Shown: positions 10,524 through 29,230 of the stretch, piece by piece
How the letters are laid out: every line of letters starts with the position of its first letter
Numbering within the stretch: the stretch's first letter is position 1
Source: Moorena sp. SIOASIH
Lineage (GTDB): Bacteria > Cyanobacteriota > Cyanobacteriia > Cyanobacteriales > Coleofasciculaceae
DNA length: 64,000 bases
Assembly: GCF_010671925.1 (NCBI RefSeq)
Contig: NZ_JAAHIH010000001.1
Span: forward strand, 805,053 to 869,052
Reading direction: 5' to 3'
Position numbers and translations under genes: made by a program
Notes under the pieces: model-generated
What the model was told of the DNA's origin: nothing
The model's database searches: none
What the model saw: the letters and a program-made list of their open reading frames with translations, nothing else

Positions 10524-10603
10524 TAATAGTGCTAATTTATAGTGCTAATTTATAGTGCTAATTCATAGTGCTAATTCATAGTGCTAATTCATAGTGCTAA
10601 TGT
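10524..10603. repeat. Tandem 13-nt repeats (AGTGCTAATT[T/C]AT) x6.
   Basis: Read directly. An 18-nt perfect palindrome GCTGACAGCTGTCAGC follows. Confidence 0.9.
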
Positions 10604-10883
10604 AAGCTGACAGCTGTCAGCTTAAAACAAACCTCGTTCGCGTAGCTTGCCCATCGCCCATTAGCTGATAGCTTACGTGCTAATTCAGATTAGATGCCTC
10701 ACAGGTTACTTGCCCTTCTTGCAGTATCTTCCCCCACTTCCCGTCTCTTCCCCATCTCCATAAATCATCCCGCTACAATTACAACGCCGTTATTTGGGTC
10801 GGACTAGTCGGGAACTCTATATGTAACTGGTATATCTAACTGGCCTCACAGAAGTCCATGTTGTTCAATGAGTCTAACCCTAA

Positions 10884-13877
10884 ATGATTACAGCTCTAGG
10901 GTATTCCATCACTGAGTCAATCGAATCTGGCACTAGAACTGTACTTGGTATTGCCTATTGGTGGCATGATTTAGCCAAGTCTTACCTAAAGACCTTCCTC
11001 ATCTTGATCACTCATCAAACCGAAAGCCATATTGGGAATGAAAACTATGGAATAAAAACTATGATAAAAGCCAGGCTTGTCGGCAAAACTAGATTGCCCA
11101 AACCATTTGTTTGGACAGTCATTTTTATCTGCATTTTACCCTATCTTCTGCATCAATTAGGGGTTGATTTTAGTACCCATCAGGAACTGTTTGACCTCTC
11201 GGCAGCCTCTGAATGGGAACCCCATCAAATTAATGATGCCATGTACTCAGTCCTGTCCGGAAGTTTTGTACACACACTCCTGGAGTGGAGTGCTGTCTGT
11301 ACAGCGTTTTTTACGGTTTGCTTAGCCTTTACGAACTACAGCATCACTAAAGACCCAATCCTTCCTATCATCGGCGTATCACTTTTTTTTGCTGGTGTGA
11401 TGGATGCCTTTCATACTCTGGCTGCTGACCGCTTAATTGATGCTGTCGCCGATAATCGGAATTTAATTCCATTTACCTGGGCACTCTGTCGGCTTTTCAA
11501 TCCACTAATCCTGATTCTAGGAACTAGCCTTTTCTTAAGGAGAAGCTGGGTAGAAAAAAACCAAACCAGGAGCTTGGGTTTTGTCATTATTGTCAGCTTG
11601 GGGTTTGGGTTGATTGCCTATGGCATAATTCACATCTGTGCAACCAGCGAGATTCTACCGGAAACAACATTTCCCAACTCCATTATCACCCGACCATGGG
11701 ACATCCTGCCATTGCTTCTGTTTATTGCTGCTGGCATTTTTATTTACCCAAGCTTTCACCAACGGTATCCCAGTCTTGTCTCTTACTCCTTAATTGTGAG
11801 TACTATTCCCGATACAGTCGCCCAACTCCACATGGCTTTTGGTTCACAAGCACTGTTCGACAGTCATTTCCAAATCGCCCATTTCCTCAAAATTATTGCC
11901 CACCTTATTCCCCTAGTAGGATTAATACTAGAATCTCAGGGTACTTCTTGTACACTAGATCAGCTCAATAAACGTCTGATAGAAGAGATTGCTAAACAAC
12001 AACAAACAGAGGAAAAATTGCAAAGGTCAATCAAAGAATTATCAGATTTCAAGTATGCTTTAGCTCAAGGATCAATCCTAGCCATTACTGACCAAAAAGG
12101 GGTAATTACCGATGTCAATGAGCGGTTCTGTCAGCTCTCTCAATATTCTAGAGAAGAACTGATTGGACAAACCCATCTACTGATCAATTCCAATTACCAC
12201 CCCAAGGAATTCTTCCGAAACCTCTGGTCAATTATTGCCAGTGGTCAAGTTTGGCGGGGAGAAATTAAAAATAAAGCCAAAGATGGCACCTATTACTGGG
12301 TCGATACCACCATCTTACCTTTCTTGGATGATAGAGACAAACCTTACCAGTATTGGGCGATCAGAACCGATATTAGCGATCGCAAACAAGCTGAGGAAGA
12401 CCTAAAACAGGCAAAAGAAGCAGCAGTTCGCGCTGCGGCGCAAAGCGCAGTTGCCAACCGCGCCAAAAGCGAATTTCTCGCCAACATGAGCCATGAACTG
12501 CGCACCCCTCTCAATGGCATCCTCGGTTACACCCAAATCCTGAAACGCTCCAAAACCTTGACTCCTCAGTCTCTCAAGGGGATTGACATTATCCATCAAT
12601 GTGGTAATCATCTGCTCACCCTGATTAATGACATTTTAGACCTGTCCAAAATTGAAGCTGGTAAAATGGAACTCTACCAGACAGATTTTCATTTTCCGTC
12701 TTTTCTTCAGAACCTGATTGACATCTGCAAAATCCGAGTTCAAAACAAGGACATTTTGTTTACTTACCAACCCCTTTCTGAACTTCCCAACGGCATCCAT
12801 GCTGATCAAAAACGCCTGCGACAAGTGCTGATTAACTTACTGGGTAATGGGATTAAGTTTACTGACACTGGAGAAATTAAGTTTACAGTAAGTGTCCTTA
12901 AATCCAGGGAAAAGGAGAATGGACACATCAACAATAGCCAAGAACTGTTAACAACAATTCGATTTAAAATTGAAGACACCGGTATTGGCATGAGTCCGGA
13001 ACAAATCGAACGGATATTTTTGCCTTTTGAGCAGGTGGGGAATCCCTTAAATAAAGCACAAGGGACGGGATTGGGATTAGCCATTACTCAGAAACTGGTT
13101 CAGATGATGGGGTCTAAGTTAGAAGTAAGCAGCCAGTTGGGCATTGGCACTGTGTTTTGGTTCGATTTGCACTTAAAAGAAACCACAGCTGTATCCAAAC
13201 CCATGACTCCTAACACAGGGATTATTGGCTTCAAAGGTCAGCCACCCACAATTCTGGTGGTGGATGATAAGCAAGAAAATCGCTGGGTGATTGTCAATAT
13301 GCTGGCTCCCCTGGGATTTGAACTAGTGGAGGCTAGCAATGGTCAAGAGGCTTTAGAGGAAGCCACAGCATTTCCACCAGATCTGATTATCACTGACTTG
13401 TTGATGCCACAGATGGATGGCTTTGAGATGATCCGACAGTTACGACAATCCCCCCAATTGCACTCAAAAGTAGTGATTGCGTCTTCGGCTAGTGTATTTG
13501 ACACTGACAAGGAAAAAAGTAGTGAGGCTGGAGCGGATGATTTTCTGCCTAAACCAGTAGAGGCAGAAAAGCTACTAGAGATGTTACAAGTGCATCTGAA
13601 ACTGGAATGGATTTATCAAGCAAAGCAGGAAGGAGGAAGTAGAAAGAAGAAAAACATCTCATCTCAAACCATAGAGATTGTCCCTCCTCCAGTCGAGAAA
13701 CTTTCCCAACTTTACGATCTGGCTAGGGCAGGCTTAATCAATGACCTTTTAAAACAAATCGATAACCTAGAAAAATCCGATCCAAACACTATTGATTTTG
13801 TCCAACATATCCGTGAATTAGCTCAAAATTTTCAGTTGAAAAAAATTCGAGATTTTCTTAAAGACTATATTCAGTGA
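10884..13877 (+). CDS. Hybrid sensor histidine kinase. Order of domains: N-terminal multi-TM (MASE-like) membrane sensor, PAS, HisKA, HATPase_c, REC, then the conserved ~65-aa C-terminal tail. An alternative start is at 11061.
   Basis: [31 protein letters not shown]-box. N/G1/F/G2 boxes ([12 protein letters not shown]...DTGIGM...GTGLGLAI). A receiver domain (VVDDKQENR...[14 protein letters not shown]...KP). The tail EIVPPPVEKLSQLYDLARAGLINDLL...LKKIRDFLKDYIQ. Confidence 0.85.
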   Translation: MITALGYSITESIESGTRTVLGIAYWWHDLAKSYLKTFLILITHQTESHIGNENYGIKTMIKARLVGKTRLPKPFVWTVIFICILPYLLHQLGVDFSTHQELFDLSAASEWEPHQINDAMYSVLSGSFVHTLLEWSAVCTAFFTVCLAFTNYSITKDPILPIIGVSLFFAGVMDAFHTLAADRLIDAVADNRNLIPFTWALCRLFNPLILILGTSLFLRRSWVEKNQTRSLGFVIIVSLGFGLIAYGIIHICATSEILPETTFPNSIITRPWDILPLLLFIAAGIFIYPSFHQRYPSLVSYSLIVSTIPDTVAQLHMAFGSQALFDSHFQIAHFLKIIAHLIPLVGLILESQGTSCTLDQLNKRLIEEIAKQQQTEEKLQRSIKELSDFKYALAQGSILAITDQKGVITDVNERFCQLSQYSREELIGQTHLLINSNYHPKEFFRNLWSIIASGQVWRGEIKNKAKDGTYYWVDTTILPFLDDRDKPYQYWAIRTDISDRKQAEEDLKQAKEAAVRAAAQSAVANRAKSEFLANMSHELRTPLNGILGYTQILKRSKTLTPQSLKGIDIIHQCGNHLLTLINDILDLSKIEAGKMELYQTDFHFPSFLQNLIDICKIRVQNKDILFTYQPLSELPNGIHADQKRLRQVLINLLGNGIKFTDTGEIKFTVSVLKSREKENGHINNSQELLTTIRFKIEDTGIGMSPEQIERIFLPFEQVGNPLNKAQGTGLGLAITQKLVQMMGSKLEVSSQLGIGTVFWFDLHLKETTAVSKPMTPNTGIIGFKGQPPTILVVDDKQENRWVIVNMLAPLGFELVEASNGQEALEEATAFPPDLIITDLLMPQMDGFEMIRQLRQSPQLHSKVVIASSASVFDTDKEKSSEAGADDFLPKPVEAEKLLEMLQVHLKLEWIYQAKQEGGSRKKKNISSQTIEIVPPPVEKLSQLYDLARAGLINDLLKQIDNLEKSDPNTIDFVQHIRELAQNFQLKKIRDFLKDYIQ

Positions 13878-13995: not shown

Positions 13996-16215
13996 ATGAA
14001 TAAAAACAAACTAATTAAGACTCTACTAAATCTCCAAAAAACAGTCCATTCTCTGCCCCTAGCACTCACTATTTTTACAGGGGTTATGTTTTCCCTACTA
14101 ACGTTCATGGGAACTTGGAATTTGGAAAACAAAACCATCGAAAAAGAGTTTGAACAAGATGCAACCGATATTGTTTCCTTGCTCCAAAGAAGCCTTGACA
14201 AAAATCTACAACAACTGGAATCGATTGTTGGGGTCTATGCTGCCTCCGAAAAAGTGACTCGTCAGGAATTTCGGACGTTTGTCAAGCCTTACTTGTCAAA
14301 TCATTCAGATATTCAAGCCCTAGAGTGGATTCCTTGGGTACCCCATGAGCAACGAGCCGCTTACGAACAAGCTGCCAAACAGGAGGGTTTTCCTAACTTT
14401 AAAATTATAGAACAGAATCCTCAGGGAGAGCTGATTAAGGCTAAACCCAGAGAAGAGTATTTTCCTGTCTATTTTGTTGAGCCATACCACGATAATGAGA
14501 CAATGTTGGGTTTTGACCTAGCCTCGAATTCTGTCAGTTTGGAAGCTTTGCAATTATCACGAGATAGTGGCAAAGCGATCGCCACCCCACCCATGATATT
14601 AATGCATAAAAGCACCCAGCACCAACTAGGATTCCTAATTTTATGGCCAATTTATCGACAGAATACACCTACTAATTCAGTTATATCCCGTCGCCAAAAT
14701 CTGGAAGGTTTTGCCTCAAGTGCGTTTTTGATTGGAGACGTCGTAGATAGGGCTTTAGAGTATCTACAACCGAGGGGGATTGATGTTTACCTGTTTCACG
14801 AATCTGCGCCAACAGAGGAGCGATTGCTCTATACCTATTCATCTAGTACACCCAAAGCATCAAAGGACTTGAAGGAGGAAGACTTTGCTAGCCTCAGAAA
14901 TGGGTTACACCATACTGTAATTCTTGATGTCTCAGGACAGAAATGGTTGATTCTGTCTAAGCCCAATTCCGAATATATCGGGAGTCGAAGAACCTGGTAT
15001 CCCTGGACTGTTTCGTTGGGGGGACTATTACTTACCATATTGCTGGCTATCTATATTAGCGATCGCATCTCAGCAGTAGCAGCACTGCTCGAGAGTGAAA
15101 GACAGCTAGAACAGCGAGTTGAGCAACGGACAGTGGAACTCCATAAAGCCAAAGAAGCAGCAGTTCAAGCAGCAGTGCAAAGTGAAGCTGCCAACCGTGC
15201 TAAAAGTACATTTCTTGCCAACATCACCCACGAAGTCCGTACTCCCCTCAACGGTATTTTGGGTTACGCTCAAATCCTGAAACAATCAACTAACCTAACG
15301 GCTAGCGACAAGAAAGGTATTGATATTATCGAGCAGTGCGGCTCTAATCTGCTCAGCCTGATCAATGAGATTTTAGACCTCTGTACAATTGAAGCTGATA
15401 AATTAGAACTCCACTCCCAAACGGTTGATTTTGGTACCTTATTGAAGGACATCGTGGAAATTTGTCAGGTGAAAGCAGAACAAAAGGGTATTTCCTATAG
15501 TTACCAAGCAAATTCTCGACTACCTAGAGCAATTAATGTTGACGAAAAACGCTTGCGACAAGTGCTGATTAACTTACTCGACAATGGCATTAAATTTACT
15601 GAAACAGGGGGAGTAACCTTTAAGGTTAGTGTCCTTGAATCAAGGAAAAATGCCAAAAATGAAACAACAAATAAACTCCAACAGATTACCACTATTCGCT
15701 TTCAAGTAAAAGACACGGGTATTGGGATGAATAGCGAGCAATTATCTAAACTATTTTTGCCATTTGAAAAGCTAGATAACACCTCTGGTTATGTGGAAGG
15801 AACTGGACTGGGTTTAGCAATTACTCAGAAACTTGTCAAGATCATGGGTGGCGAGATTAATGTCGAGAGTAACCCAGGCCAAGGTAGTATTTTTACTATA
15901 GATTTAGACGTACAAACTTATCCAGAATCCGATCAAATCAAATTTACTAAAAATCAGCAAAAAATAGTTGATATTCAAGAACAAAATAATAACAGTATAT
16001 CAGTGAAAACAACAGAAATTGTTAGTCCTCCAAAAGAAAAACTAGTCTACCTCTACGATCTGGCTATGTCAGGCTTAATCAATGACCTTTTAGAGGAAGT
16101 CGATCAGCTAGAACAAAATGATGAGATATTTATACCATTTTCCCAAGCTATCCGTCAATTATCCGAAAAATTTCAAATTAAAAAAATTCGAGAATTCATC
16201 AAACAATACCTGTAA
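13996..16215 (+). CDS. Sensor histidine kinase with a periplasmic CHASE domain, HisKA and HATPase_c. It has no receiver domain but keeps the same conserved C-terminal tail.
   Basis: Signal/TM, then a CHASE-like periplasmic domain (...QEFRTFVKPYLSNHSDIQALEWIPWVPHEQRAAYE...), a second TM, the H-box [30 protein letters not shown], and an ATPase domain. The tail EIVSPPKEKLVYLYDLAMSGLINDLL...IKKIREFIKQYL directly follows the ATPase domain. Confidence 0.85.
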   Translation: MNKNKLIKTLLNLQKTVHSLPLALTIFTGVMFSLLTFMGTWNLENKTIEKEFEQDATDIVSLLQRSLDKNLQQLESIVGVYAASEKVTRQEFRTFVKPYLSNHSDIQALEWIPWVPHEQRAAYEQAAKQEGFPNFKIIEQNPQGELIKAKPREEYFPVYFVEPYHDNETMLGFDLASNSVSLEALQLSRDSGKAIATPPMILMHKSTQHQLGFLILWPIYRQNTPTNSVISRRQNLEGFASSAFLIGDVVDRALEYLQPRGIDVYLFHESAPTEERLLYTYSSSTPKASKDLKEEDFASLRNGLHHTVILDVSGQKWLILSKPNSEYIGSRRTWYPWTVSLGGLLLTILLAIYISDRISAVAALLESERQLEQRVEQRTVELHKAKEAAVQAAVQSEAANRAKSTFLANITHEVRTPLNGILGYAQILKQSTNLTASDKKGIDIIEQCGSNLLSLINEILDLCTIEADKLELHSQTVDFGTLLKDIVEICQVKAEQKGISYSYQANSRLPRAINVDEKRLRQVLINLLDNGIKFTETGGVTFKVSVLESRKNAKNETTNKLQQITTIRFQVKDTGIGMNSEQLSKLFLPFEKLDNTSGYVEGTGLGLAITQKLVKIMGGEINVESNPGQGSIFTIDLDVQTYPESDQIKFTKNQQKIVDIQEQNNNSISVKTTEIVSPPKEKLVYLYDLAMSGLINDLLEEVDQLEQNDEIFIPFSQAIRQLSEKFQIKKIREFIKQYL

Positions 16216-16244
16216 CGTAATGGATGCATCTCATATTTGTAAAA

Positions 16245-16312
16245 AAGAAGGGAAGTGTGGGGAGGGTGGGGAGATAGGGAGATGGGGAGATGGGGAGATG
16301 GGGGAGATTTTT
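16245..16312. repeat. GGGGAGAT-type short tandem repeats.
   Basis: Read directly. A similar array occurs at 29650-29690. Confidence 0.8.
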
Positions 16313-16597
16313 ATTAATGGTAATTGTTATAACATGATATTATGCTTCTATTTTTTTGAGTGTTTTTGCATGCATTTAGATGCACCATAAAGTAATTAGA
16401 TAAACCTGGTGAATAACACTATAAATGCCAAGTCAATGAAGCAAGGGAAATTGATAGCAGACTGAAACTGTTACTTGGGTAGCACTGGTTGGGAATTCTA
16501 TAATATAACTATTGTATTTACCACTTTATTTACAACTGTATGTACAACCCCACAATCATTAAATAATTCCCAATAGTTGATTGAGTGATAAAAGACA

Positions 16598-18964
16598 ATG
16601 GCTGCCTCTCCCTTGAGGAGGATATGGAGAAATGATATGACTAAATTAAAAACAGACTCAACCACCGAATCTTCATTGTCAAAGACGGTTTCAACCAACT
16701 CATCCCAACCTTTAACAGGTCCCCTTGTCTGGTTCAGAAAGCAGCTAAATCGCCTTAATATCAGTCAAAAGATTGCCTATGGGTATGGTATTGCCCTTGG
16801 GATTGCTGTTCTGGGAACAACAGTTGGACTCCTTATTGGCAATAACTACCAAAACTATGCCCAGAACTTAAGAGAAGATGCTTTAGAAGAAAGCGAGCTT
16901 CTCATGGAATTGCAACGTCACCTGCTGGAAATACAAATACACCATCAATACTTCGCTGTTTTGTTCCAGCAACCAGACATTTTTAAGGAAGAGTATTCTC
17001 GTTTTAAAAAGCATTCCCGATTAGCCCAGCAAAACTGGTTAGCATTAAAAGAATCTTACAAAAATCCAGAGGTGGATGAGGGATCAGAGGAAGTTGAACT
17101 TTTCAATAACCTTATCAAAAATTATGACAGCCTAATACAAGTATACACCCAACGGGTAGAGGCACTATTGCAGCCAATCGATCCGTCGAATTTGAAGCCA
17201 GAAGAAATCGAGACAGCCCACAAAAATTTTCTAGAGTTAAGCAAGAGTCATTTAGGGCTAAACCTCAGGAGTTTCGTCTATGATCTTGAGGAAATAATAG
17301 AGGAGGTTGAGGAGGAAAGACCACATGCCAAAGCTGTGCTAGATGCTTCTGAAAGGCTTCGGACTCGAATCATTTTGATAACCATGATCCTATCAATTTC
17401 AACCGCAGCCCTATTAGCCTTCTATACCAGTAAAACACTGTTAGCAGCTCAAGAAGTAGAAATCCAACGTCAACAGCTCCTGAGCCAAGAATTACAAGGG
17501 GCTAAAGAAACCGCTGAAATTGCCAACCGTGCTAAAAGTGAGTTCCTGGCCAATATGAGTCATGAACTGCGCACCCCCCTCAATGGCATCCTCGGCTATA
17601 CCCAAATCCTCCAACGCTCTAAAATCATGAGTCCTGAGGAACTCAAGGGCATCCGTGTCATCCACCAATGTGGCAACCACCTACTGACCTTGATTAACGA
17701 TATTTTAGACATTTCTAAAATCGAAGCCAGGAAAATGGAACTGTACCCAAGCAATTTTCATTTTCCCTCCTTTCTAGAAAATCTAGTTGATATCTGCCGT
17801 ATCCGCGCTGATCAGAAGGAAATTTCCTTTAGTTACCAACCCCAGAATCAACTCCCCAATCACATCCATGGCGATGAAAAACGCCTGCGACAAATACTAA
17901 TTAACTTACTGGGTAATGGGATTAAATTTACTGACACTGGAGCAGTCACTTTCAAGGTCAATGTCTTGGAATCAAAGCCCTTAACAACAAAGGAAGACAA
18001 AAAGCCAAACAACCATGGACTGATCAGAACAATTCGGTTTCAAATTGAAGACACCGGTATTGGTATGAGTCCGGAACACATCGAACGCATAGTGTTGCCC
18101 TTCGAGCAGGTGGGGAATCCCTTAAGTCGAGCCGAAGGCACCGGATTGGGATTAGCCATTACTCAGAAACTGCTTGAGATGATGGGGTCTACTTTGGAAG
18201 TGCAAAGCCAACTCGGTGTTGGCAGCGTATTTTGGTTCGATTTGGACTTGCCAGAAGCGACAGGGGTAACTGATGTGATTGTTCCTGATCAGACAATTAT
18301 TGGTTTCCAAGGCAAAGAGCGCAAAATTCTGGTGGTCGATGATAAACCAGAAAATCGCTGGGTACTGGTGAATCTGCTAGCTCCCCTTGGCTTTGAACTA
18401 AAAGAAGCGAGCCATGGTAAAGAAGGTTTAGAGAAAGCTAAACAGTTCCAACCAGATCTGATTATTACTGACTTGTTGATGCCACAGATGGATGGTTTTG
18501 AGATGATCCGACAGTTGCGAGAATCCTCCCAATTCTCATCAGTACCAGTGATCGCTTGTTCAGCCAGTGTGTTTGATGATCACCAGCATCACAGTATTGA
18601 GGCTGGAGCAGATGATTTTCTGCCCAAGCCAGTAGAGTCAAAAAAGCTATTAGAGACGTTACGGGAATATCTGAAACTAGAATGGGTTTATGAAGAAGAA
18701 GAAGATAAAGATACAAAGGTAAGCAGCAAGGCACCCTCCCCCCTCAAAACTGAAAACTCGATGGTGCCGCCCTCAAAAGAAGCACTAGACCACCTGTACG
18801 ATCTGGCGAAGACTGGCTTAATTAGCGAGATTTTAAAACAAGTGGAAATCCTGGAAAAATCTGATGATAAGTTAATCCCGTTCAGCCAACATCTCCGTCA
18901 ATTAGCCGAAGACTTTAACCTCAAGAAAATTCGACAGTTTATTCAGCAATATCGGGATAAATAA
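16598..18964 (+). CDS. Hybrid sensor histidine kinase: TM, a periplasmic four-helix-bundle sensor (CHASE3/4HB-like), TM, HisKA, HATPase_c, REC, and the conserved C-terminal tail.
   Basis: Two TM segments flank a ~200-aa helical periplasmic region. The transmitter, receiver and tail are about 95% identical to those of the 20697-23261 gene. Confidence 0.85.
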
Positions 18965-18976
18965 TAATTATAGCAA

Positions 18977-19347
18977 AGGGAGCAGGGAGTAGGGAGTAGG
19001 GAGTAGGGAGTCGGGAGTAGGTAGTATAGGTAATAAAATTGAATGTAGCTTATAAGTATAATAAACGCAATATTACAATTAACTATTACTAACCAATATA
19101 ACTATTTTTGGTTAGTAAATTTTAAATAACAAATAGTTTATTTTTAGATATTTAAGTAATAAAAAAAAATATTAAATATTATCATGAAATACTGCATCAA
19201 TACAGTGATAACAATCAATTTCAGTACTCAAAGAATGAAATATTATTACTGCTCCCTGCTCCCTGCTCCCTGCTCCCTGCTCCCTGCTCCCTGCTCCCTG
19301 CTCCCTGCTCCCTGCTCCCTGCTCCCTGCTCCCTGCTCCCTGCTCCC
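18977..19347. repeat. Inverted heptamer arrays, (GGGAGTA)n at 18977-19030 and (TGCTCCC)x~14 at 19250-19347, flanking a ~220-bp AT-rich core.
   Basis: Read directly. The two arrays are reverse-complement-related, so the region can fold as a long hairpin or cruciform. Confidence 0.85.
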
Positions 19348-19559
19348 TAAACTCCAATAATTTGTAACTCACCCAAGTAAAAACTGCTGTAATATAACCA
19401 ATGATATCCCATCGAAAAAGTGATGAAATAAACTAGAGATTAAGCTTAAACTGTTATTTTGGTAAGATTAGCTGGGAATTCTATAATATGATTATTGACT
19501 ATTGTGGAATCCCACAACTGTAAACCATTCGCAAGAGCTTATCTTAGTGATAAAAGACA

Positions 19560-19700
19560 ATGGCTGCATCTCTCTTGAGGAGGATATGAATAAATGATAT
19601 GACTAAGTTAAAAACAGACTCAACCACCGAATCTTGATTGTAAAAAACGGTTTCAACCAACTCATCCTAACCTTTAACAGGCTCCCTTGTCTGCTTCAGA
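19560..19700 (+). pseudogene. Degenerate duplicate of the promoter and 5' coding end of the kinase gene at 16598 (a remnant kinase start containing stop codons).
   Basis: 19455-19700 aligns at about 85% identity with 16480-16745 (..GATAAAAGACAATGGCTGC.TCTC.CTTGAGGAGGATATG..ATGATATGACTAA.TTAAAAACAGACTCAACCACCGAATCTT..). The reading frame is broken in the second copy. Confidence 0.55.
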
Positions 19701-19828
19701 AAGGGTCGTGTTGCACTTTTATGCGATTGACTCTAGCACTAGAACCTAAGTTGCTCAAGGCATGTCTGAGGCTGACCAAAAACCCGTGATTATCAAAGGT
19801 AAAATTAATAGTTTATTGGAGATGTCTA

Positions 19829-20689
19829 ATGAAGTTAAATAGCTGGTTCACCCTAGCTCTAGGGACGAGCCTAGCCATGTTGGTAAGCTGCACCCCCAAC
19901 ACCAACCAAGCCACCAATGTCCAACAAGCCCAGCAGGAAATCAAGATTACTGGGGCAGGGAGTCCCTATCCAGCAATGAAGGTATTAGCTACTGCCTATG
20001 AAGCCAAGACTGAAAACACAGTCATTACCTTTTTGCCAAAAAGTCAATCCCCTGGTGGAATCGCTGGCACTAAAGACAAATTGGTTGATATTGGTACTGT
20101 TACCAGGACTTTGAAACCAGAGGAGGATGATGGCTCTTTAGTATATCGGGAAATCGCCAAAGATGGTTTAGTAGTAGCAACTCACCCTAGTGTCGTAGGA
20201 GTAACCAATTTGCAAACCGAACAACTCAAGGCCATCTACAGCGGAAAGGTGACCAATTGGCAAAAGGTAGGGGGACCAGACGCAACAATTATCGTGCTGG
20301 ATCGACATGAAGATGAGTCAGCCAAGAAACTATTGCGGAAATACTATCTTGGATCAGACCTCAAGAATGCTCCAGAAGCAGTGATTTTGCGCCACGAAGC
20401 TGATTTAATTGCAGCGGTCCAGAGTACACCCTACAGCATCGGTGCTTTCTCCCTGGCCTATGCGATCGCTAATCAGCTACCTGTGAACCGCCTCAGTCTA
20501 GATGGCGTGGAACCCACCCCCGAAAACATTAAGTCAGGTAAATATAAAATGGCGCGTCGCCTTGGCATCGTCTACCGCCAGACCCCCTCAGATATCTCCC
20601 AAACCTTTATTGACTTCGCCTTTAGCAAAGAAGGAGGCAACCATCTGCTCGAATCAGGGTTCATACCATCTAGCCAGGAACAGGAGTAG
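19829..20689 (+). CDS. PstS-like (PBP superfamily, phosphate-binding-protein fold) periplasmic substrate-binding lipoprotein encoded immediately upstream of a hybrid kinase.
   Basis: Lipoprotein signal (LAMLVSC). Then [20 protein letters not shown]..., [16 protein letters not shown] and [12 protein letters not shown] motifs typical of PstS/PBP-like_2 proteins. Its stop is 8 nt before the kinase ATG at 20697. Confidence 0.75.
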
Positions 20690-20696
20690 TAGTGAC

Positions 20697-23261
20697 ATGT
20701 TCCGACAGATGTACTCGAAACTTTCCCTCAGAGCAAAAATACTATTGCCGATGCTCTTTGTGTTCCTGGGAATGTGGATAGTAGGAACCTTTAGTTTGGG
20801 CTATTTTTTCACTAAGCGTCTGGAACAGCAAGTGCAAGAGGAGATCGAGGACTTCTCATCCATACAATTGCATGCCTTTGAACAGGAAAAAGAAACTCTA
20901 TTTTTGAAAGCAAGGTGGATAGCTGACAGAGAGGATGTTTCCACATTAGTTGCAGCAGGGAACCGGCAAAAGCTGTTTCAGTATTTACTGCCGATACAGT
21001 TATCTTATCAGCTCGATCTGCTTAAACTCGTAGACAAGAACGGGTCTATATTGCTGGAACTGCGGCAGGCAGACCTTAACCAAGTTGAGCTACTCGACGA
21101 GACAGTCAACCAAGCGGCAAGCATTGGGATGGATTTGTTCGATTTCGTGCCAGCTGAAGACAATGCCCCATCGCTCCTAGTCGGTCTAACCTCGGTGAAG
21201 TCTGCCCAGGAAATCTTAGGGGGAATAATCGTTGGCATTACTATTAGCGATGAATGGCTCGAACAATTACGCCCCCATAGGCACCATCACCTCGTTACCT
21301 TCTATGATTCTCAGGTTACTGCCTCTACCTTAACCGATGCTAAAAATGCTCCTTGGCAGCCACCGCCAATCAAATCCCTACCAGTGCAGGTCACTATTGC
21401 CGAGAAAAACTACATTGCCAAAAGTGTAGAGATCACCGGGATCAATGGTAAGGGGGGCAAACTGGTTTTACTGTACTCCGCCGCACCTCTTGAGCAGGTG
21501 CAGGGAAAGTTGTGGTTCAGTATCAGTGCTTTGTGCTTGCTGGGGTCAGCAATTACCACCGTAGTTGCCAACAGGGTCACTTTCTTGATTACCCGTAACA
21601 TTCAACAAGTAACAGAGGTAGCCCAGCGCGTCACTCAAGATGATAATTTTACTCTACAAGCCCCGATCATATCCCAAGATGAAATAGGAGTCTTAGCCAC
21701 TTCTCTGAATCATCTTATTCAACAAGTAAAGCATCTTTTGGCATCCAAAGAAGCAGAAGTCCAACGTCAACAGCTCCTCAGCCAAGAATTACAAGCAGCT
21801 AAAGAAACCGCTGAAATTGCCAACCGTGCCAAAAGTGAGTTCCTGGCCAATATGAGTCATGAACTGCGCACTCCCCTCAATGGCATCCTCGGCTATACCC
21901 AAATCCTCCAACGCTCTAAAATCATGAGCCCTGAAGAACTCAAGGGCATCCGTGTCATCCACCAATGTGGCAACCACCTACTCACCCTGATTAACGATAT
22001 TTTAGACATTTCTAAAATCGAGGCTAAGAAAATGGAACTGTACCCAACCAATTTTCATTTTCCCTCCTTTTTAGAAAATCTAGTTGACATCTGCCGTATC
22101 CGCGCTGATCACAAAGATATTGTATTTATTTACCAACCCCAAAATCAACTCCCCAATCACATCCATGGCGATGAAAAACGCCTGCGACAAATACTAATTA
22201 ACTTACTGGGTAATGGGATTAAGTTTACTGACACTGGGACAGTGACTTTCAAGGTAAATGTCTTAGAGTCAAAGCCCTTAACAAAAGGAGAAGACAAAAA
22301 ACAAAACAACCATGGAATTTTGAGAACAATTCGGTTTCAAATTGAAGACACCGGTATTGGTATGAGTGCAGAACACATCGAACGCATAGTGTTGCCCTTT
22401 GAGCAGGTGGGGAATCCCTTAAGTCGAGCCGAAGGCACCGGATTAGGATTAGCCATTACTCAGAAACTGCTTGAAATGATGGGGTCTACTTTGGAAGTGC
22501 AAAGCCAGCTCGGTGTGGGCAGTTTATTTTGGTTCGATTTGAAGTTGCCAGAAGCCACAGAAGTAACTGATGCGATCGCTCCTAACAAGACAATTATTGG
22601 TTTCCTTGGCCAAGGCCGCAAAATTCTGGTGGTGGATGATAAACCGGAAAATCGCTGGGTACTGGTGAATCTGCTAGCTCCCCTTGGCTTTGAACTCGAA
22701 GAAGCGAGCCATGGTCAAGAGGGTTTACAGAAAGCCACACAGTTCCAACCGGATCTGATTATTACTGACTTGTTGATGCCACAGATGGATGGTTTTGAGA
22801 TGATCCGACAGTTGCGAGAATCCTCCCAATTCTCATCAGTATTAGTGATCGCTTGTTCAGCCAGTGTGTTTGATGATCACCAGCACCAAAGTAGTGAGGC
22901 TGGAGCAGATGATTTTTTGCCCAAGCCAGTAGAGTCAAAAAAGCTATTAGAGAAGTTACAGGTAAATCTGAAACTAGAATGGGTTTATGAAGAAGAAGAA
23001 GATAAAGATAAAAACCTCACGACCAAGGCACCATCCCCTCTCAAAACTGAAAAGTCGATGGTGCCGCCCTCAAAAGAAGCACTAGACCACCTGTACGATC
23101 TGGCGAAGACTGGCTTAATTAGCGAGATTTTAAAACAAGTGGAAATCCTGGAAAAATCTGATGATAAGTTAATCCCGTTCAGCCAACATCTCCGTCAATT
23201 AGCCGAAGACTTTAAACTCAAGAAAATTCGACAGTTTATTCAGCAATATCGGGATAAATAA
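20697..23261 (+). CDS. Hybrid sensor histidine kinase: TM, a periplasmic Cache-like sensor, TM, HAMP, HisKA, HATPase_c, REC, and the conserved C-terminal tail. The track ORF 20502-23261 overlaps the upstream gene; the likely start is the ATG at 20697.
   Basis: [31 protein letters not shown]1, a ~280-aa periplasmic domain, TM2, a HAMP-like segment, then a transmitter-REC-tail near-identical to the 16598 gene. Confidence 0.85.
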
Positions 23262-23273
23262 TAATTATAGCAA

Positions 23274-23853
23274 AGGGAGCAGGCAGTAGGGAGTAGGGAG
23301 TAGGGAGTAGGGAGTAGGGAGTAGGGAGTAGGGAGTAGGGAGTAGGGAGTAGGGAGTAGGGAACAGGGAACAGGAAAGTGGGAAAAGGGAAAAAATATTG
23401 TTTACCTCATTAGGCTATAAAAAGCTATAAATTCAAAAAATTTATTTATTCATAAATAAATAAATAAAACCAGGCATAAAACTCTATATTGTGTATAGCA
23501 ATCCGTGTAGGAATTGTGAGAATTTTTGTTCCCTACTCCCGTCTTGATGCAGTCGCTCATGGGGGAAACCACGGCAGTCGCTGGGGGAACGGCAGTCGCT
23601 CATGGGGGAGACCACGGCAGACCGCGAGTGGGGGAAACCACGGCAGACCGCGAGTGGGGGGAACCCCCAAGACCGCACTGCCTCCCCAAGACCGCGCTGC
23701 CTCCCCAAGACCGCGCTGCCTCCCCAAGACCGCGCTGCCTCCCCAAGACCGCGCTGCCTCCCCAAGACCGCGCTGCATCGCTACTCCCTACTCCCTACTC
23801 CCTACTCCCTGCTCCCTGTTCCCTGTTCCCTGTTCCCTGTTCCCTGTTCCCTT
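23274..23853. repeat. Complex intergenic repeat island. It contains (GGGAGTA)x~12 at 23274-23376, GC-rich ~29-nt repeats at 23556-23664, a 19-nt unit CCCCAAGACCGCGCTGCCT x6 at 23665-23778, and an inverted (TACTCCC)x3-(CTGTTCC)x6 array at 23779-23853.
   Basis: Read directly. The ORFs predicted on both strands here are repeat translations. Confidence 0.9.
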
Positions 23854-24033
23854 TGCTATAGGATTGATTCATAACTAATCCTACAGGTATATAGTTGCGG
23901 CAGAAGTACTGAATATTATCTTAAAAAAAATCCTACTACAGTTTTTTGTGTAATTAAAGGGAACAATTAAAGGGAAACAGTGAACATAATACTTTTGAAA
24001 AAGTAGCAAAAAATCAACTAGTTAATCGGAGCA

Positions 24034-27000
24034 ATGAAAACTATCAAACAAATTAGCCCTATAGCGGAAATAAACTACTTTCTAGCTATTTTTATACCTT
24101 TAACGATAGGGATAGGAAGTTTTCTAGTGCTCATGCATCGCACCGAGGTTAAGGTTGACACAACAGAAGTCAACCTTAATGAAATCCGTAATGTTGAGAT
24201 GGCAGCTCAACGAGCAGCTAGTGATTTCCATGTCATTGTATCAGACTTGAGATTCCTAGCCAATCAAAATGAGTTACGAGGAATGTTAGATAGCACCAGT
24301 GATGCTCTCCAAGAAACTGAAAAGTGGCGCATGGCTCTTACTCAAGAATATCTGATCCTGCTTCGAGAGAAAGGGCTTTATGACCAAATTCGCTTTCTGG
24401 ATACAACTGGTAAAGAAATTGTTAGAGTCAACTTTAACCAGGGTCAGCCGGTTATTGTGCCTGAGGAACAACTGCAAGTCAAGGCAAATCGTTACTGGTT
24501 TCAAAAAACCTTAGCTTTGCCAAAGGGAGAAATGTTTGTCTCTCCCCTAGACCTGAATGTCGAAAATGGAAAAATTGAACACCCCCTGAAGCCAGTAATT
24601 CGCGTTGGTAGCCCTGTGTTTGACAGTTATGGTCAGAAACGGGGCATCGTCATCATTAACTATTTTCCTAAACATTTCATCAATAGTTTGGAACCCGAAA
24701 ATAACACCTCTTTAGGGGAAATGATGCTGTTGAATGGTGAGGGATTTTGGCTGAAGGGAACCAACCCAGAGGATGAATGGGGATTCATGTATCCTAACCG
24801 CAAAGACCGTACCTTTGCCAAGGCGTTTCCAAAAGCATGGCAACGGATTTCTAAGGCTGATCACGGGCAGTTTGAAACTGCCAACGGTAAGTTTACCTTT
24901 ACCACTGTTCATCCTTTCTACGAGATGCAAACAGCTAAAACTGCTGTACAAAAGCGTTTTTCTGATCTCACTAGGATCGATGCTAACTCCGATACCTGGA
25001 AAATTGTCACCTACATTTCCCCTAAGGTGATAAATAAACGCTCCCGTGATTCCTGGAAGCCGCTAGGGCTGCTTTATGGTAGTTTAGTGGTGCTAATTGG
25101 TATTGGTTCTAGCTTACTAGCACGGGCTAAGGTAGAGCATCAGCACGCAGAAGAGGAACTGGGACTGAGTCAGGAACGCTTGCAGCTAGCCTTAGAAGGA
25201 TCCGGTGATGGACTCTGGGACTGGAACATCACGACTGGAGAGGTTTATTACAGTCCCCGGTGGTTAGAAATGCTGGGCTATGATGTGGATGAGCTACCAG
25301 GATACCTCAGCAGTTGGGAAAAGCTGATACATCCAGAGGATAAACCCTTGGTAAGGTCGTTGCTGAATGCTTGTCTAAAGAACAGTTCGGTTCTCTTTGC
25401 CTGTGACCATAGAGTACGAACCAAATCCGGTCAATGGAAATGGATTGCCATTTACGGTAAAGTGGTTGCTCATGATCACAAGGGCAACCCGAAACGAATG
25501 GCAGGAACCCATAAAGATATTAGCGATCGCAAACAGGCCGAGGAAGAACTGCGGCTGAGCAGAGAACGCTTTCGCACGCTCTATGAAAATACACCAGTTA
25601 TGCTGCATTCGATTGATAGCAATGGCAGATTGCTCAGTGTCAGTAACTACTGGCTTGAGAAGCTAGGCTACGAGCGTAGTGAAGTTATTGGAAGACAATC
25701 CACTGATTTTTTAACAGAATCACCCCAGTACGCCCAAGGGGTGTTTCTGCCTAAATGTTTTGAGACAGAAATGTGCTTGGATGTTCCCTATCAGGTGATT
25801 TGCAAGAATGGAGAAATCATTGACGTGCTTCTTTCCGCTATTGCTGAACAAGATGAGTTAGGTCAGGTGGTTCGGTCTCTAGCGGTTATGGTTGATGTCA
25901 CTGCTCGCAACCGAGCGGAAGCCGCACTGCAACATGCTAAAGAGGCTGCGGAAGTTGCCAATCGTGCCAAAAGCGAATTCCTGGCTAACATGAGCCACGA
26001 ACTAAGAACCCCCCTTAATGGTATCCTTGGCTACACCCAAATCCTCAAAAAGTCCAAAACCATGACCCCTGAGGAACTCAAAGGCGTCCACATCATTCAT
26101 CAGTGTGGTTCACACCTGTTAACCCTAATTAACGACATTCTGGATCTCTCCAAAATTGAAGCCAGGAAAATGGAACTCGTTCCTAGAAATGTTCATTTTT
26201 CCTCCTTTCTGGAAAACCTGGTTGACATCTGCTGTATCCGCGCTGATCAGAAGGACATTGTATTTACTTACCAACCCCTTTCTCAACTCCCCAATGGCAT
26301 CTATGGGGATGATAAACGCCTACGACAAGTACTGATGAACCTGCTAAGTAATGCCATCAAGTTTACCGACTCTGGGGAAGTAACCTTCAAAGTGAGTGTC
26401 CTTGAATCTACGCAAAATGATAACCCCCCATCACCCCCCTCCACCCGACCCTTCACAACGGAGGTAGACAATGGTCAAAAAGAGCTTAAGAAAGAACAAA
26501 GGACAAAAATCCGGTTTCAAGTAGAAGATACTGGGATTGGTATAACCCCAGAGCAATTAGAAACGATTTTTTTGCCCTTTGAGCAAGTAGGAAATCCCTT
26601 TCGCAAAGCAGAAGGGACAGGATTGGGATTAGCGATTACTCAGAAACTCTTGTCCATGATGAACTCTAGCTTAGAAGTAAGGAGCCAGCCCGGAATTGGC
26701 ACTGTGTTTTGGTTTGATTTGGAGTTGCCAGAAGCCACAGAAAGCTTAGATGCCCCAATGGCTTCTCAAACAGGGATCATTGGCTTCAAAGGTAAGGAGC
26801 GGAAAATCCTGGTAGTGGATGATCAATGGGAAAATCGCATGGTTTTGGTTAATCTGCTTGCCCCCCTTGGGTTTGAACTGGTGGAGGCAACCAACGGTCA
26901 AGAGGGTTTGGAGAAAGCTCAGTGTCAGCCTGACGTAATTATTACCGACTTGCTCATGCCAGGGATCGATGGTTGGGAATTAATCCGACAGCTGCGAGAA

Positions 27001-27426
27001 TCCCCCCAATTAAAGTCAGTAGTGGTGATTGCTTGCTCAGCCAGCGTATTTAATACTCACCAACACAAGAGTATTGAGTCTGGGGCGGACGAGTTTCTGC
27101 CCAAGCCAGTAGATTCAGAAAGACTATTCGAGATATTACGGATGCATCTGAGACTGGAATGGGTGTATGAAGGAAAAGAACAAGGAGAAAAGATGATGGC
27201 TGAAAACATCTCATGTCAAACTACAGAGATTATCCCTCCCCCAGCTGAAAAACTTGCTCAGCTCTATGATTTGGCCAGAACAGGCTTAATCAGCGAAATT
27301 TTAGAACAAGTGGATAATCTGGAAAAATCCGATGAAAAATTGGCGATTTTTGCCCAACATATCCAGCAATTCGCTCAAGGCTTTCAGGTCAAAAAAATCC
27401 AAGATTTCATCAAACAATACCTATAA
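24034..27426 (+). CDS. Hybrid sensor histidine kinase: TM, a ~330-aa periplasmic (Cache-like) domain, TM, two PAS domains, HisKA, HATPase_c, REC, and the conserved C-terminal tail.
   Basis: PAS signatures (LALEGSGDGLWDWNITTGEVYYSPRWLEMLGY; RFRTLYENTPVMLHSIDSNGRLLSVSNYWLEKLGY). The H-box [30 protein letters not shown]. The REC and tail ...[26 protein letters not shown]...VKKIQDFIKQYL. Confidence 0.85.
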   Translation: MKTIKQISPIAEINYFLAIFIPLTIGIGSFLVLMHRTEVKVDTTEVNLNEIRNVEMAAQRAASDFHVIVSDLRFLANQNELRGMLDSTSDALQETEKWRMALTQEYLILLREKGLYDQIRFLDTTGKEIVRVNFNQGQPVIVPEEQLQVKANRYWFQKTLALPKGEMFVSPLDLNVENGKIEHPLKPVIRVGSPVFDSYGQKRGIVIINYFPKHFINSLEPENNTSLGEMMLLNGEGFWLKGTNPEDEWGFMYPNRKDRTFAKAFPKAWQRISKADHGQFETANGKFTFTTVHPFYEMQTAKTAVQKRFSDLTRIDANSDTWKIVTYISPKVINKRSRDSWKPLGLLYGSLVVLIGIGSSLLARAKVEHQHAEEELGLSQERLQLALEGSGDGLWDWNITTGEVYYSPRWLEMLGYDVDELPGYLSSWEKLIHPEDKPLVRSLLNACLKNSSVLFACDHRVRTKSGQWKWIAIYGKVVAHDHKGNPKRMAGTHKDISDRKQAEEELRLSRERFRTLYENTPVMLHSIDSNGRLLSVSNYWLEKLGYERSEVIGRQSTDFLTESPQYAQGVFLPKCFETEMCLDVPYQVICKNGEIIDVLLSAIAEQDELGQVVRSLAVMVDVTARNRAEAALQHAKEAAEVANRAKSEFLANMSHELRTPLNGILGYTQILKKSKTMTPEELKGVHIIHQCGSHLLTLINDILDLSKIEARKMELVPRNVHFSSFLENLVDICCIRADQKDIVFTYQPLSQLPNGIYGDDKRLRQVLMNLLSNAIKFTDSGEVTFKVSVLESTQNDNPPSPPSTRPFTTEVDNGQKELKKEQRTKIRFQVEDTGIGITPEQLETIFLPFEQVGNPFRKAEGTGLGLAITQKLLSMMNSSLEVRSQPGIGTVFWFDLELPEATESLDAPMASQTGIIGFKGKERKILVVDDQWENRMVLVNLLAPLGFELVEATNGQEGLEKAQCQPDVIITDLLMPGIDGWELIRQLRESPQLKSVVVIACSASVFNTHQHKSIESGADEFLPKPVDSERLFEILRMHLRLEWVYEGKEQGEKMMAENISCQTTEIIPPPAEKLAQLYDLARTGLISEILEQVDNLEKSDEKLAIFAQHIQQFAQGFQVKKIQDFIKQYL

Positions 27427-27739: not shown

Positions 27740-29230
27740 ATGATCAATGGCCAGAATGAACAACTAATATTAATTGTAGATGATATCGCCACCAATTTAG
27801 AAGTACTATCCACTACATTGATCAGTGCTGGTTTCAAAGTTGCAGTCGCCACTGATGGCGAAAGCGCCATTGAACAGGTTGACTATAAACCGCCGGATCT
27901 GATTGTGTTAGATGTAATGATGCCAGGAATTGATGGATTTGAAACGTGCCATCGGCTGAAGGAAAATCCGTTAACCCGTGAAATTCCCGTGATTTTTATG
28001 ACAGCGCTGAGCGAGACCGTGAACAAGGTCAAGGGTTTTTCTCTTGGAGCAGTGGACTATCTGACCAAACCGATTCAGTCAGAGGAAGTATTAGCCAGAG
28101 TTAGAACCCATTTGCAACTGCAAAGTCAGGCAAAGGCCCTCAAGGAGCAAAATGCCCTTCTTAAAGAGGAAATTGAACAGCGAAGGTCAGCAGAAGCGAG
28201 GTGGCAAAACACCCTAGAACAGCTCGAAGCTGCCCAAAGCCAGATAATCGCCCAAGAAAAACTCGCTGCTCTTGGACAACTGGTTGCAGGAATCGCTCAC
28301 GAAATCAATACTCCCCTGGGAGCAATTCGCTCCTGTGTGGGCAATCTGTCTAACTTCTTCAACGACCACCTCCACCAATTACCCTCATTTTTTCAAGGAC
28401 TCTCGCCAGAACGTCAGTCGGATTTGTTGGCCTTACTCCAATACTCCAGCCGACAGACTACCCCTCTATCTACCCGAGAGCAACGTCAACTCAAACGAAG
28501 GTTGAAAAGCCAACTGGAATCCTACGCTATTGATAAAGCCGTAAAGCTAGCCAATTTATTAGCGGGAATTGGGGTTTATGAGGACTTCGAAGAGTTTTTG
28601 CCTCTCCTGAAAGACCCAGACAACGAAATGATTTTAACCACTGCCTATCAATTAGCTAACCTCTATACCAGTACGCGCAACATTACCACTGCCGTAGAAC
28701 GAGCTACAAAAGTGGTGTTTGCCTTGAAAACTTATGCTCGTTATGACTCTAGTGGGGAAAAGATAGATGCACAGATTACTGACGGGATTGACACGGTCTT
28801 GACTCTTTATCATAACCAACTCAAACATGGCGTAGACGTCTACAGAAACTATGACGATTCTTTGCCAGTTATCCGGTGCTATCCTGATGAACTCAATCAA
28901 GTCTGGACTAATCTGATTCACAATGCCCTCCAAGCCATGGAGAACAAGGGGAATTTAATCATTAATGTCAGGCAGGAAGATGACCAAATCAAGGTCAGCA
29001 TTACTGACACTGGCAAGGGGATTCCTCCTGAAATTCAGCCGAAAATCTTTCAGCCGTTCTTTACCACGAAACCCGCTGGAGAAGGCAGTGGCTTGGGATT
29101 AGATATTGTTAGGAAAATTGTAGAGAAACATCACGGACACATGGAGGTGGAGTCCGTACCCGGTGAAACTACCTTTACAGTTTCCCTACCGATTCAGCAG
29201 CCACACCCGATGGCTGAGGAGGTACATTGA
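27740..29230 (+). CDS. Response-regulator-receiver / histidine-kinase fusion (N-terminal REC, coiled coil, HisKA, HATPase_c).
   Basis: REC motifs (ILIVDD...DLIVLDVMMPGIDG...KP). The H-box AGIAHEINTPLGAI. An ATPase domain (DTGKGIPPEIQPKIFQPFFTTKPAGEGSGLGLDIVRKIV). Confidence 0.85.
   Translation: MINGQNEQLILIVDDIATNLEVLSTTLISAGFKVAVATDGESAIEQVDYKPPDLIVLDVMMPGIDGFETCHRLKENPLTREIPVIFMTALSETVNKVKGFSLGAVDYLTKPIQSEEVLARVRTHLQLQSQAKALKEQNALLKEEIEQRRSAEARWQNTLEQLEAAQSQIIAQEKLAALGQLVAGIAHEINTPLGAIRSCVGNLSNFFNDHLHQLPSFFQGLSPERQSDLLALLQYSSRQTTPLSTREQRQLKRRLKSQLESYAIDKAVKLANLLAGIGVYEDFEEFLPLLKDPDNEMILTTAYQLANLYTSTRNITTAVERATKVVFALKTYARYDSSGEKIDAQITDGIDTVLTLYHNQLKHGVDVYRNYDDSLPVIRCYPDELNQVWTNLIHNALQAMENKGNLIINVRQEDDQIKVSITDTGKGIPPEIQPKIFQPFFTTKPAGEGSGLGLDIVRKIVEKHHGHMEVESVPGETTFTVSLPIQQPHPMAEEVH

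Follow-up and report, generated by a model that had tools for sequence, protein, structure and literature searches.

Several bacterial sensor kinases depend on a periplasmic binding protein, as in LuxP-LuxQ, TorT-TorS and ChvE-VirA, and in many-to-one phosphorelays several kinases feed one partner, LuxN, LuxQ and CqsS acting on LuxU and KinA-E on Spo0F. After duplication of a kinase gene the outputs are usually expected to diverge, avoiding cross-talk. Gene conversion between bacterial paralogues is well known, tufA/tufB and the rRNA operons being the classic cases of concerted evolution, and interlocus gene conversion between paralogues has been surveyed prokaryote-wide (PMC6053082). Here we analyse a kinase locus in a 64,000-nt window of Moorena sp. 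SIOASIH (NCBI RefSeq assembly GCF_010671925.1, contig NZ_JAAHIH010000001.1, positions 805,053 to 869,052 of the forward strand; unless another locus is named, coordinates count from the first letter of this window). Two neighbouring hybrid histidine kinase genes, HK1 and HK2, carry unrelated sensors on nearly identical output halves, and between them lie a decayed copy of the HK1 start, which we call the fossil, and a gene for a PstS-like periplasmic binding protein (PBP). Histidine kinases expand in a lineage-specific manner with domain shuffling, by a mechanism that is unclear (Alm et al. 2006, PLoS Comput Biol, PMC1630713). Like the expansions described there, the locus consists of tandem paralogous kinases with a common transmitter and different N-terminal sensors; unlike them, it has kept traces at the DNA level (a dead 5' end, exact homology boundaries and conversion mosaics), and these point to homogenisation of output halves between stable, sensor-defined genes rather than to the acquisition of sensors. 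The explanation we favour, and consider reasonably probable, is that the output halves of the long-standing neighbours HK1 and PBP-HK2 evolve in concert by gene conversion. The features on which the argument turns are the following.

16637-18964, + strand: HK1, a hybrid histidine kinase of 775 aa with a transmembrane helix (TM), a helical sensor, a second TM, HisKA, HATPase_c, REC and a C-terminal tail (Pfam)
16637-17437, + strand: HK1 sensor region (sensor 1), present in HK1 only, with weak 4HB_MCP_1/TarH matches
19829-20689, + strand: PstS-like PBP of 286 aa, PF12849 (PBP_like_2) at 1.4e-36
20697-23261, + strand: HK2, a hybrid histidine kinase of 854 aa with TM, dCache_3-like domain, TM, HAMP, HisKA, HATPase_c, REC and tail (Pfam)
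20697-21734, + strand: HK2 sensor and HAMP (sensor 2), present in HK2 only, 51-55% identical to the sensors of the distant loci L010 and L011
17426-19026, + strand: output module copy 1, comprising signalling helix, DHp, CA, REC, tail, stop codon and 62 nt of 3' flank, 93.2% identical to 21722-23323, the flank ending in a GGGAGTA array
21722-23323, + strand: output module copy 2, the BLASTN match to 17426-19026
17428-17462, + strand: paralogue-specific edge of the module, holding 9 of the 13 differences fixed over all ten Moorena copies
18757-18964, + strand: candidate recent conversion tract of this genome, with its partner at 23054-23261 and 99% identity in 18757-18906

HK1 and HK2 each combine a DHp domain with its H-box, a GHKL ATPase and a receiver in one polypeptide and are thus hybrid histidine kinases (E-values in HK1 and HK2, respectively, of 1.8e-20 and 1.3e-20 for PF00512, 1.4e-22 and 8.8e-22 for PF02518, and 2.7e-27 and 5.9e-25 for PF00072). 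Their products match NEO35449.1 (the 775-aa NCBI model of Moorena sp. SIOASIH, starting at 16637) and NEO35451.1 exactly. The best NCBIfam matches of HK2 are hybrid transmitters of the TorS, BarA and LuxQ type, each under its own cutoff. The two sensors, which lie between the repeat anchors described below, bear no relation to each other. A first-pass annotation of this DNA, made from the letters alone, had assigned a four-helix-bundle sensor to the first copy, for which there is a weak match only (4HB_MCP_1, E=0.035); its assignment of a PstS-like gene and a different Cache-like/HAMP sensor to the second copy holds at the level of domain calls (PBP_like_2, and HAMP followed by HisKA-HATPase_c-REC, with a weak dCache_3). 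Among 416 representative relatives of the HK1 sensor, the sensor is N-terminal in all and the outputs are varied. The true HK1 start is ATG 16637, because the NCBI model begins there and because the orthologue in locus L002 has an in-frame TAG downstream of ATG 16598, which rules out the start chosen in the first pass. The first ~24 residues of HK1 (16637-16708) are Ser/Thr-rich and have no counterpart in the single distant orthologue aligned (L010). HK2 starts at ATG 20697, 8 nt beyond the PBP stop codon, so PBP and HK2 form an operon. All parts of HK1, PBP and HK2 are under purifying selection, with omega at 0.11-0.8.

A BLASTN comparison of 16300-19450 with 19400-23950 returned two collinear matches. 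The longer joins 17426-19026 to 21722-23323 at 93.2% identity over 1602 nt, with one gap and 108 differing positions, and extends 62 nt beyond the stop codons (18964 and 23261) into GGGAGTA heptamer arrays, its 3' end falling within the first array after HK1. Over the 1527 common coding nt of the two modules, synonymous divergence (dS) is 0.17 and nonsynonymous divergence (dN) 0.046, giving a dN/dS of 0.27, and the first, second and third codon positions hold 23, 23 and 57 mismatches; in the 150 nt from 18788 onward the copies have a single mismatch. The shorter match pairs 16462-16741 with 19445-19703 at 79.4% identity over 281 nt with 4 gaps, within which a repeat finder gave 92% for a core (16584-16741 versus 19546-19703) and 81% for a promoter block (16462-16514 versus 19445-19497). 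The first-pass annotation had placed the long repeat at 17455-19030 versus 21745-23376 with ~95% identity and the copied promoter and start at ~85% with stop codons; both repeats are real and the second is indeed a dead copy, at the extents and identities given here. Other transmitters of the same family within the cluster reach merely 72-76% nucleotide identity. Because dS is low and the identity takes in non-coding flanks, with promoter and leader copied too, the likeness of HK1 and HK2 is paralogy at the DNA level and not protein-level conservation of shared domains, and the worry that similarity might be confined to amino-acid sequence falls away.

Evidence that the two modules have exchanged sequence comes first from trees. 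Output modules of HK1-like and HK2-like kinases pair by genome in Moorena (bootstrap 100, 91% amino-acid identity), in L011 (bootstrap 100, 81%) and in L010 (bootstrap 98, 62%), whereas between genomes the modules share 50-57%; the sensors are orthologous across the three lineages, at 51-55% for sensor 2 and 30-45% for sensor 1. In each of the three lineages the two paralogues of one genome are therefore more alike than either is to its orthologue elsewhere, the pattern of concerted evolution. In L011 the HK1-like and HK2-like genes are 82.5% identical over 1677 nt in a tract that begins inside HAMP, so that the HK1-like kinase (9631-12018) bears an HK2-type HAMP and the breakpoint has moved relative to Moorena.

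Polymorphism was counted in the four Moorena genomes that have both copies, with the transmitter of an older MASE3-kinase as control. HK1 and HK2 modules have 75 shared polymorphisms and 21 fixed differences, against 11-14 shared and 215-222 fixed in the control. Shared sites at codon positions 1, 2 and 3 number 15, 10 and 47, where chance would give no more than 4.2, 1.3 and 20.2 (P between 1.6e-6 and 5.7e-12 over the codon positions in a hypergeometric test). Between genomes, dS of the module (0.11-0.24) exceeds that of the unique sensor and PBP parts (0.07-0.13) in most comparisons, by up to about twofold. A nearest-neighbour scan over 150-nt stretches shows the modules to be mosaics: HK2 of M. 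producens JHB is 99% identical to HK1 of this genome in 18022-18171, and HK1 and HK2 of this genome are mutual nearest neighbours, at 99%, in 18757-18906. Since the copies keep exchanging sequence and group by genome, dS cannot date the duplication, a warning that extends to any such paralogues. Separately, a count of 11 genome-private substitutions common to both copies, obtained with four sequences, fell to 1 with ten, as in controls, and is withdrawn.

The pairing of the two kinases is old. Locus L010, on contig_6782 of ERZ25039505, holds, in order, two PBP genes, an 848-aa HK2-like kinase and a 746-aa HK1-like kinase (P0170), and L011, the metagenome contig Ga0207422_1000118, holds a PBP gene, an 859-aa HK2-like gene and a 795-aa HK1-like gene. 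P0170 was found by exhaustive search with the HK1 sensor and is colinear with HK1 at 53% identity; the 848-aa protein is colinear with full-length HK2 at 54.7%, including hybrid transmitter, REC and tail. The junction from HAMP to transmitter is kept ('SKEAEV' in HK2 and 'EKEAEV' in L010, where the junction stretch reads VLATSLNQLIGQVGQLLTEKEAEVERQQ), and at the residues encoded by 17428-17462 HK2 resembles the L010 HK2-like protein and HK1 the L010 HK1-like protein. Given this conserved junction and the L010-like fixed residues, both the fusion of sensor 2 to a hybrid output and its adjacency to HK1 predate Moorena. That HK2 was newly built in Moorena is probably not the case, judging by these alignments, and the first-pass picture of a captured snapshot of input-region replacement is not supported, given a PBP and an HK2-like hybrid next to an HK1 orthologue in L010 and L011.

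Sensor 2, that is, the first 346 residues of HK2 with TM, dCache-like domain, TM and HAMP, belongs to a family whose genes nearly always follow a PstS-like gene. In 16 of the 16 loci read, a PBP homologue, intact or decayed, lies immediately before the sensor-2 kinase: intact in 14 (Moorena, L006, L007 and L010-L016) and as decayed remnants in two Symploca loci. Identity of sensor 2 to the window is 53% in Symploca and 46-47% in L006 and L007 (Calothrix rhizosoleniae). In L006, L007, L012-L016 (five metagenome loci) and Symploca, sensor 2 is joined to non-hybrid transmitters of two other types. The Symploca sensor-2 kinase (L004/L005 10001-11911) has a transmitter 52% identical to that of the REC-PAS kinase at 31155-31973 of the window and ~30% identical to the transmitters of other sensor-2 kinases, which places sensor 2 on three transmitter types. 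The REC-PAS kinase transmitter was considered as HK2's lost original and rejected, its transmitter having closer relatives elsewhere (60-65%) and the gene being a mosaic, so that the link is one of subfamily only. In L015 a second gene (10246-11094), ~1.6 kb downstream of the PBP/sensor-2 kinase, has a transmitter 81% identical in amino acids to the P0005 type, and may form another pair of neighbouring kinases with a common output module.

With a PBP gene conserved directly upstream of a periplasmic-sensor kinase, PBP-HK2 is comparable to LuxPQ and TorTS, and it resembles LuxP-LuxQ, TorT-TorS and ChvE-VirA in that the kinase carries a periplasmic Cache/PAS-like domain. It differs from LuxP-LuxQ and TorT-TorS in its PstS-like binding protein, whose coupling to the kinase is putative. 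The PBP scores 127 bits against a cutoff of 27 for the superfamily domain PF12849 and stays below the curated PstS cutoffs (142.8 versus 206.6 bits for TIGR02136 and 36 versus 205 for TIGR00975). It matches phosphate-binding proteins of the PDB at about 1e-29, and the motif 'ISGSTS' of one of them (4gd5, a solved phosphate-binding protein) reads 'ITGAGS' in the window PBP; the ligand might, to judge from these residues and scores, be other than phosphate. No pstCAB genes were noted adjoining the PBP in the loci read, and a kinase partner is present in every locus.

The arrangement of HK1, fossil, PBP and HK2 is present in all six Moorena assemblies read (the window and five others, whose DNA flanking the locus is 92-97% identical to the window). 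The gene order MASE3-kinase, CHASE-kinase, HK1, fossil, PBP, HK2 and a 1120-aa kinase is complete in three of the others, namely the closed chromosomes of M. producens JHB (CP017708.2) and PAL-8-15-08-1 (CP017599.1) and the metagenome-assembled genome (MAG) SS36440bin_2. In M. bouillonii a 100-N scaffold gap cuts the HK2 module, and in SIO3H5 the contig ends within HK2. An apparent ~900-nt deletion of HK2 in M. bouillonii proved to be this gap, which in M. bouillonii PNG5-198 (L001 11576-11675) consists of 100 N after non-homologous junk, within the duplicated module, where the assembler broke. The first-pass annotation had called the duplication recent, but it is not specific to a strain or species, as the layout in six assemblies and a stop codon common to their fossils attest. 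The two-copy layout of the two closed chromosomes likewise settles the question of assembly that had been raised with it. The duplication is neither recent nor an assembly artefact.

What remains of the second HK1 start is best followed feature by feature.

16462-16514, + strand: HK1 promoter block, TTGGGT, 18 nt, TATAAT, kept in 8 of 8 aligned copies (4 HK1, 4 fossil)
16584-16636, + strand: HK1 5' untranslated region (5' UTR) with a GAGGAGG Shine-Dalgarno-like block; GATAAAAGACAATGGCTGC.TCTC.CTTGAGGAGGATAT is nearly invariant in the 8 copies
19445-19497, + strand: fossil copy of the HK1 promoter, TTGGTA, 17 nt, TATAAT (19459-19487), sigma-70-like match 10/12
19546-19703, + strand: fossil HK1 5' UTR (19546-19589) and dead first ~35 codons (19590-19703), with stop codons
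19704-19828, + strand: leader from the fossil junction to the PBP start, non-homologous to HK1, with 94% mean identity in six Moorena genomes

The first-pass annotation was right that a fossil kinase start lies upstream of the PstS-like gene: the promoter, leader and first codons of HK1 have truly been copied there, and the copy is dead. The first-pass figure of ~50 codons depended on a gene start at 16598; with the real start at 16637, the fossil contains about 35 true HK1 codons, together with the 5' UTR and promoter. In its reading frame, ATG 19560 meets a TGA at codon 10, and ATG 19596 is stopped after 12 codons. One TGA, from a C-to-G change, is common to 6 of 6 Moorena fossils, whose indels are independent, and the fossil is therefore older than the split of these Moorena species. 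Its final 11 codons, PLTGSLVCFRK, match N-terminal residues of HK1 that are partly retained in the distant orthologue P0170, which identifies the fossil as a decayed HK1 start and not as the source of one.

The fossil promoter is the best sigma-70-like site within 16200-24100. Mean pairwise identity among the six Moorena genomes is 88% in the promoter block and 91% in the leader/Shine-Dalgarno block (fossil UTR), 78% in the stretch between these blocks and 78% in the dead open reading frame; the 125 nt from the junction to the PBP start, at 94%, are the most conserved of the non-coding blocks measured. As the promoter and leader blocks are conserved while the coding part has decayed, the fossil promoter probably drives the PBP-HK2 operon now, and a promoter may thereby have reached a new operon via a dead gene start. 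A search of Rfam gave no match in 16000-24100 at E up to 1, hence no known RNA element in the common leader, and a terminator scan found nothing exceeding shuffled expectation.

That the arrangement is older than the Moorena radiation, that the pairing is old, that the modules group by genome and that the copies have exchanged sequence are the observations on which our preferred explanation, concerted evolution of the output halves, is built. In order to rationalise them on the molecular level, we propose RecA-type interlocus gene conversion between tandem direct repeats. Conversion would be limited on the 5' side by the start of homology, just past the HAMP or TM2 helix, and on the 3' side by the heptamer arrays, which are common in this genome. 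The fossil still calls for a segmental duplication of HK1 DNA that preceded the Moorena radiation; this single larger event would have left a copy of the promoter and leader of HK1, with ~35 codons, immediately in front of PBP, and it may also have overwritten an original hybrid transmitter of HK2. The coding part of the copied start would then have decayed and the promoter and leader been retained, co-regulating PBP-HK2 with HK1. As for function, the PBP would bind a phosphate-like ligand and signal via the periplasmic dCache-like domain and HAMP of HK2, HK1 would sense another signal through its helical periplasmic domain, and both kinases would feed one downstream partner, since DHp, REC and tail are nearly identical in the two.

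A number of observations pull against this proposal. Within Moorena, the whole-module neighbour-joining (NJ) tree places HK1 and HK2 in different clades, with a short internal branch between them, a split that would also fit a single duplication just before the radiation. With ten sequences, genome-private derived states present in both copies amount to one site per genome, equal to cross-genome control pairs, so that the one sign of very recent, genome-private conversion would be the 3'-terminal 99% tract of this genome. Sensor 2 of Symploca sits on a different, non-hybrid transmitter, which makes more than one ancestral state near Moorena conceivable. The order also differs, HK1 preceding PBP-HK2 in Moorena and following it in L010 and L011, and no scheme of one duplication plus deletions starting from the L010/L011 order gave the fossil-PBP junction with an intact HK1 upstream. 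Lastly, the relation of L010 and L011 to Moorena is estimated from sequence distance and HIP1 sites only.

Several of these points would be at home in the first-pass history at face value, in which the whole HK1 unit (~16462-19444) was duplicated in tandem in an ancestor of Moorena, PBP and a foreign Cache/HAMP sensor took the place of the sensor in the second copy to give a new chimeric kinase, and the 93% identity records the age of that event. The fossil does begin at 19445, right after the intergenic region of HK1, as expected at the joint of such a duplication; fossil (79-92%) and module (93%, dS 0.17) are broadly alike in divergence; the clades of the NJ tree are split as it predicts, and elsewhere sensor 2 is mostly found on the non-hybrid transmitters listed above (L006, L007, L012-L016 and Symploca). 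Against it, L010 and L011 already have an HK2-like hybrid with the same sensor, HAMP, junction, REC, tail, PBP and HK1 neighbour, divergence is not clock-like, as shared polymorphisms are in excess and dS between orthologous modules is raised, and the event is not recent. We regard this history as unlikely, if deserving of serious attention.

Another possibility is that a local hybrid transmitter expanded in tandem independently in Moorena, L010 and L011, with sensors 1 and 2 captured separately each time, the likeness of the modules then reflecting recent ancestry. The hybrid transmitters of each cluster do form genome-specific clades, including those with MASE3, PAS and ETR1_N inputs, and for histidine kinases it is documented as the rule that families expand while their domains are shuffled (Alm et al. 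2006, PMC1630713). Such a course, however, needs both sensors and the PBP to have been captured side by side three times and the lineage-conserved HAMP-to-helix junction to have arisen on every occasion, and it does not explain the shared polymorphisms in Moorena; we think it improbable. An assembly artefact, a mis-join or repeat expansion producing the second copy, is made conceivable by the origin of the window from a MAG and by the gap inside the HK2 module of M. bouillonii, a repeat that troubles assemblers, and is practically eliminated by the 108 differing positions, by the same layout in CP017708.2, CP017599.1 and another MAG, and by purifying selection on both genes. Equally negligible is the idea of old paralogues alike merely through protein-level constraint or convergence, for although DHp, CA and REC are conserved domains and dN/dS is 0.27, dS is just 0.17, identity runs 62 nt past the stop codon and through the non-coding promoter and leader, and same-family transmitters in the cluster reach no more than 72-76% at the nucleotide level.

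Taken as gene conversion, the locus resembles tufA/tufB and the rRNA operons in having within-genome paralogues closer than orthologues, mosaic tracts and shared polymorphisms. It is unlike them in that exchange affects multidomain signalling genes in one half only, the other halves being unrelated, and in that it recurs with different breakpoints, after HAMP in Moorena and inside HAMP in L011. Our search of the open-access literature turned up no report of concerted evolution limited to the output modules of kinases; one myxobacterial study merely speculates that conversion may occur. The parallel with LuxN/LuxQ/CqsS-LuxU and KinA-E-Spo0F is that sensors whose outputs match in specificity would feed a common pathway, a convergence that here would follow solely from the near-identical DHp, REC and tail.

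Unrelated sensors with output halves probably kept alike by exchange in three lineages make the locus a counter-example to the expected divergence of duplicated outputs, and its breakpoints, at the signalling helix or HAMP, are sites that protein engineers use for chimeric kinases. Tentatively, and with less confidence than for gene conversion itself, we suggest that homogenisation of output halves could be a selected, recurrent process in cyanobacterial kinase clusters, keeping hybrid kinases with different sensing matched to one partner. If so, it would be the reverse of the divergence by which duplicated kinases are expected to become insulated, shifts of the boundary would occasionally swap HAMP or linker modules, and the locus would make the recombination of kinase inputs with outputs visible in the DNA.

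HK1 and HK2 belong to a run of seven consecutive two-component genes on one strand (10884-31985), which also codes for a REC-HK, a lone REC and a REC-PAS-HK; REC proteins of the cluster lie at 27740-29230, 29731-30150 and 30081-31985. A conserved C-terminal tail of ~60 aa (PPxxExLxxLYDLAxxGLI...KKIxxFxxxY) closes five kinases of the cluster, including a receiver-less CHASE kinase.

18780-18961, 23077-23258, 13690-13874, 27240-27423 and 16030-16212: copies of the tail

AlphaFold models the tail as four short helices, at a pLDDT of about 83. The tail belongs to no Pfam family and gave no Hpt match at E up to 10; Foldseek against the PDB returned only hits with E above 1, the RcsD/YojN HPt at rank 3, and a profile search against the PDB was empty. 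An HPt identity of the tail is thus unsupported by the profile, Foldseek and PDB profile searches, and no HPt domain for onward phosphotransfer was found in it, a separate HPt gene elsewhere in the genome not having been searched for.

Repeats follow both kinase genes.

18977-19348: heptamer arrays after HK1, (AGGGAGT)x7 at 18977-19026 and inverted (CTGCTCC)x14 at 19249-19348
23274-23852: arrays after HK2, (AGGGAGT)x12.7 at 23274-23362 and inverted (CTCCCTG)x10 at 23784-23852
23603-23776: 26-nt and 19-nt repeats, after HK2 only, the 19-nt unit x5.9

Each kinase gene is thus followed by (AGGGAGT)n and, 200-400 nt further, by inverted (CTCCCTG)n, and these arrays could form very long hairpins. 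Further heptamer arrays occur across the window at 16258-16308, 42352, 51555, 52674 and 63801. The REC-PAS kinase (30081-31985) is apparently a mosaic: full-length relatives reach 45-47% at most, the REC-PAS half shares 57-60% with adenylate cyclases of 868 aa from Microcoleus and relatives, and the PAS-transmitter half shares 60-65% with other kinases. The stretch 5775-10388, which precedes the kinase run, encodes a 1348-aa TPS-TPR-CHAT protein and a 165-aa MEKHLA-domain protein, as does the JHB locus, and at 51103-51280 there is an 88-nt tandem repeat of 2 copies with 97% identity.

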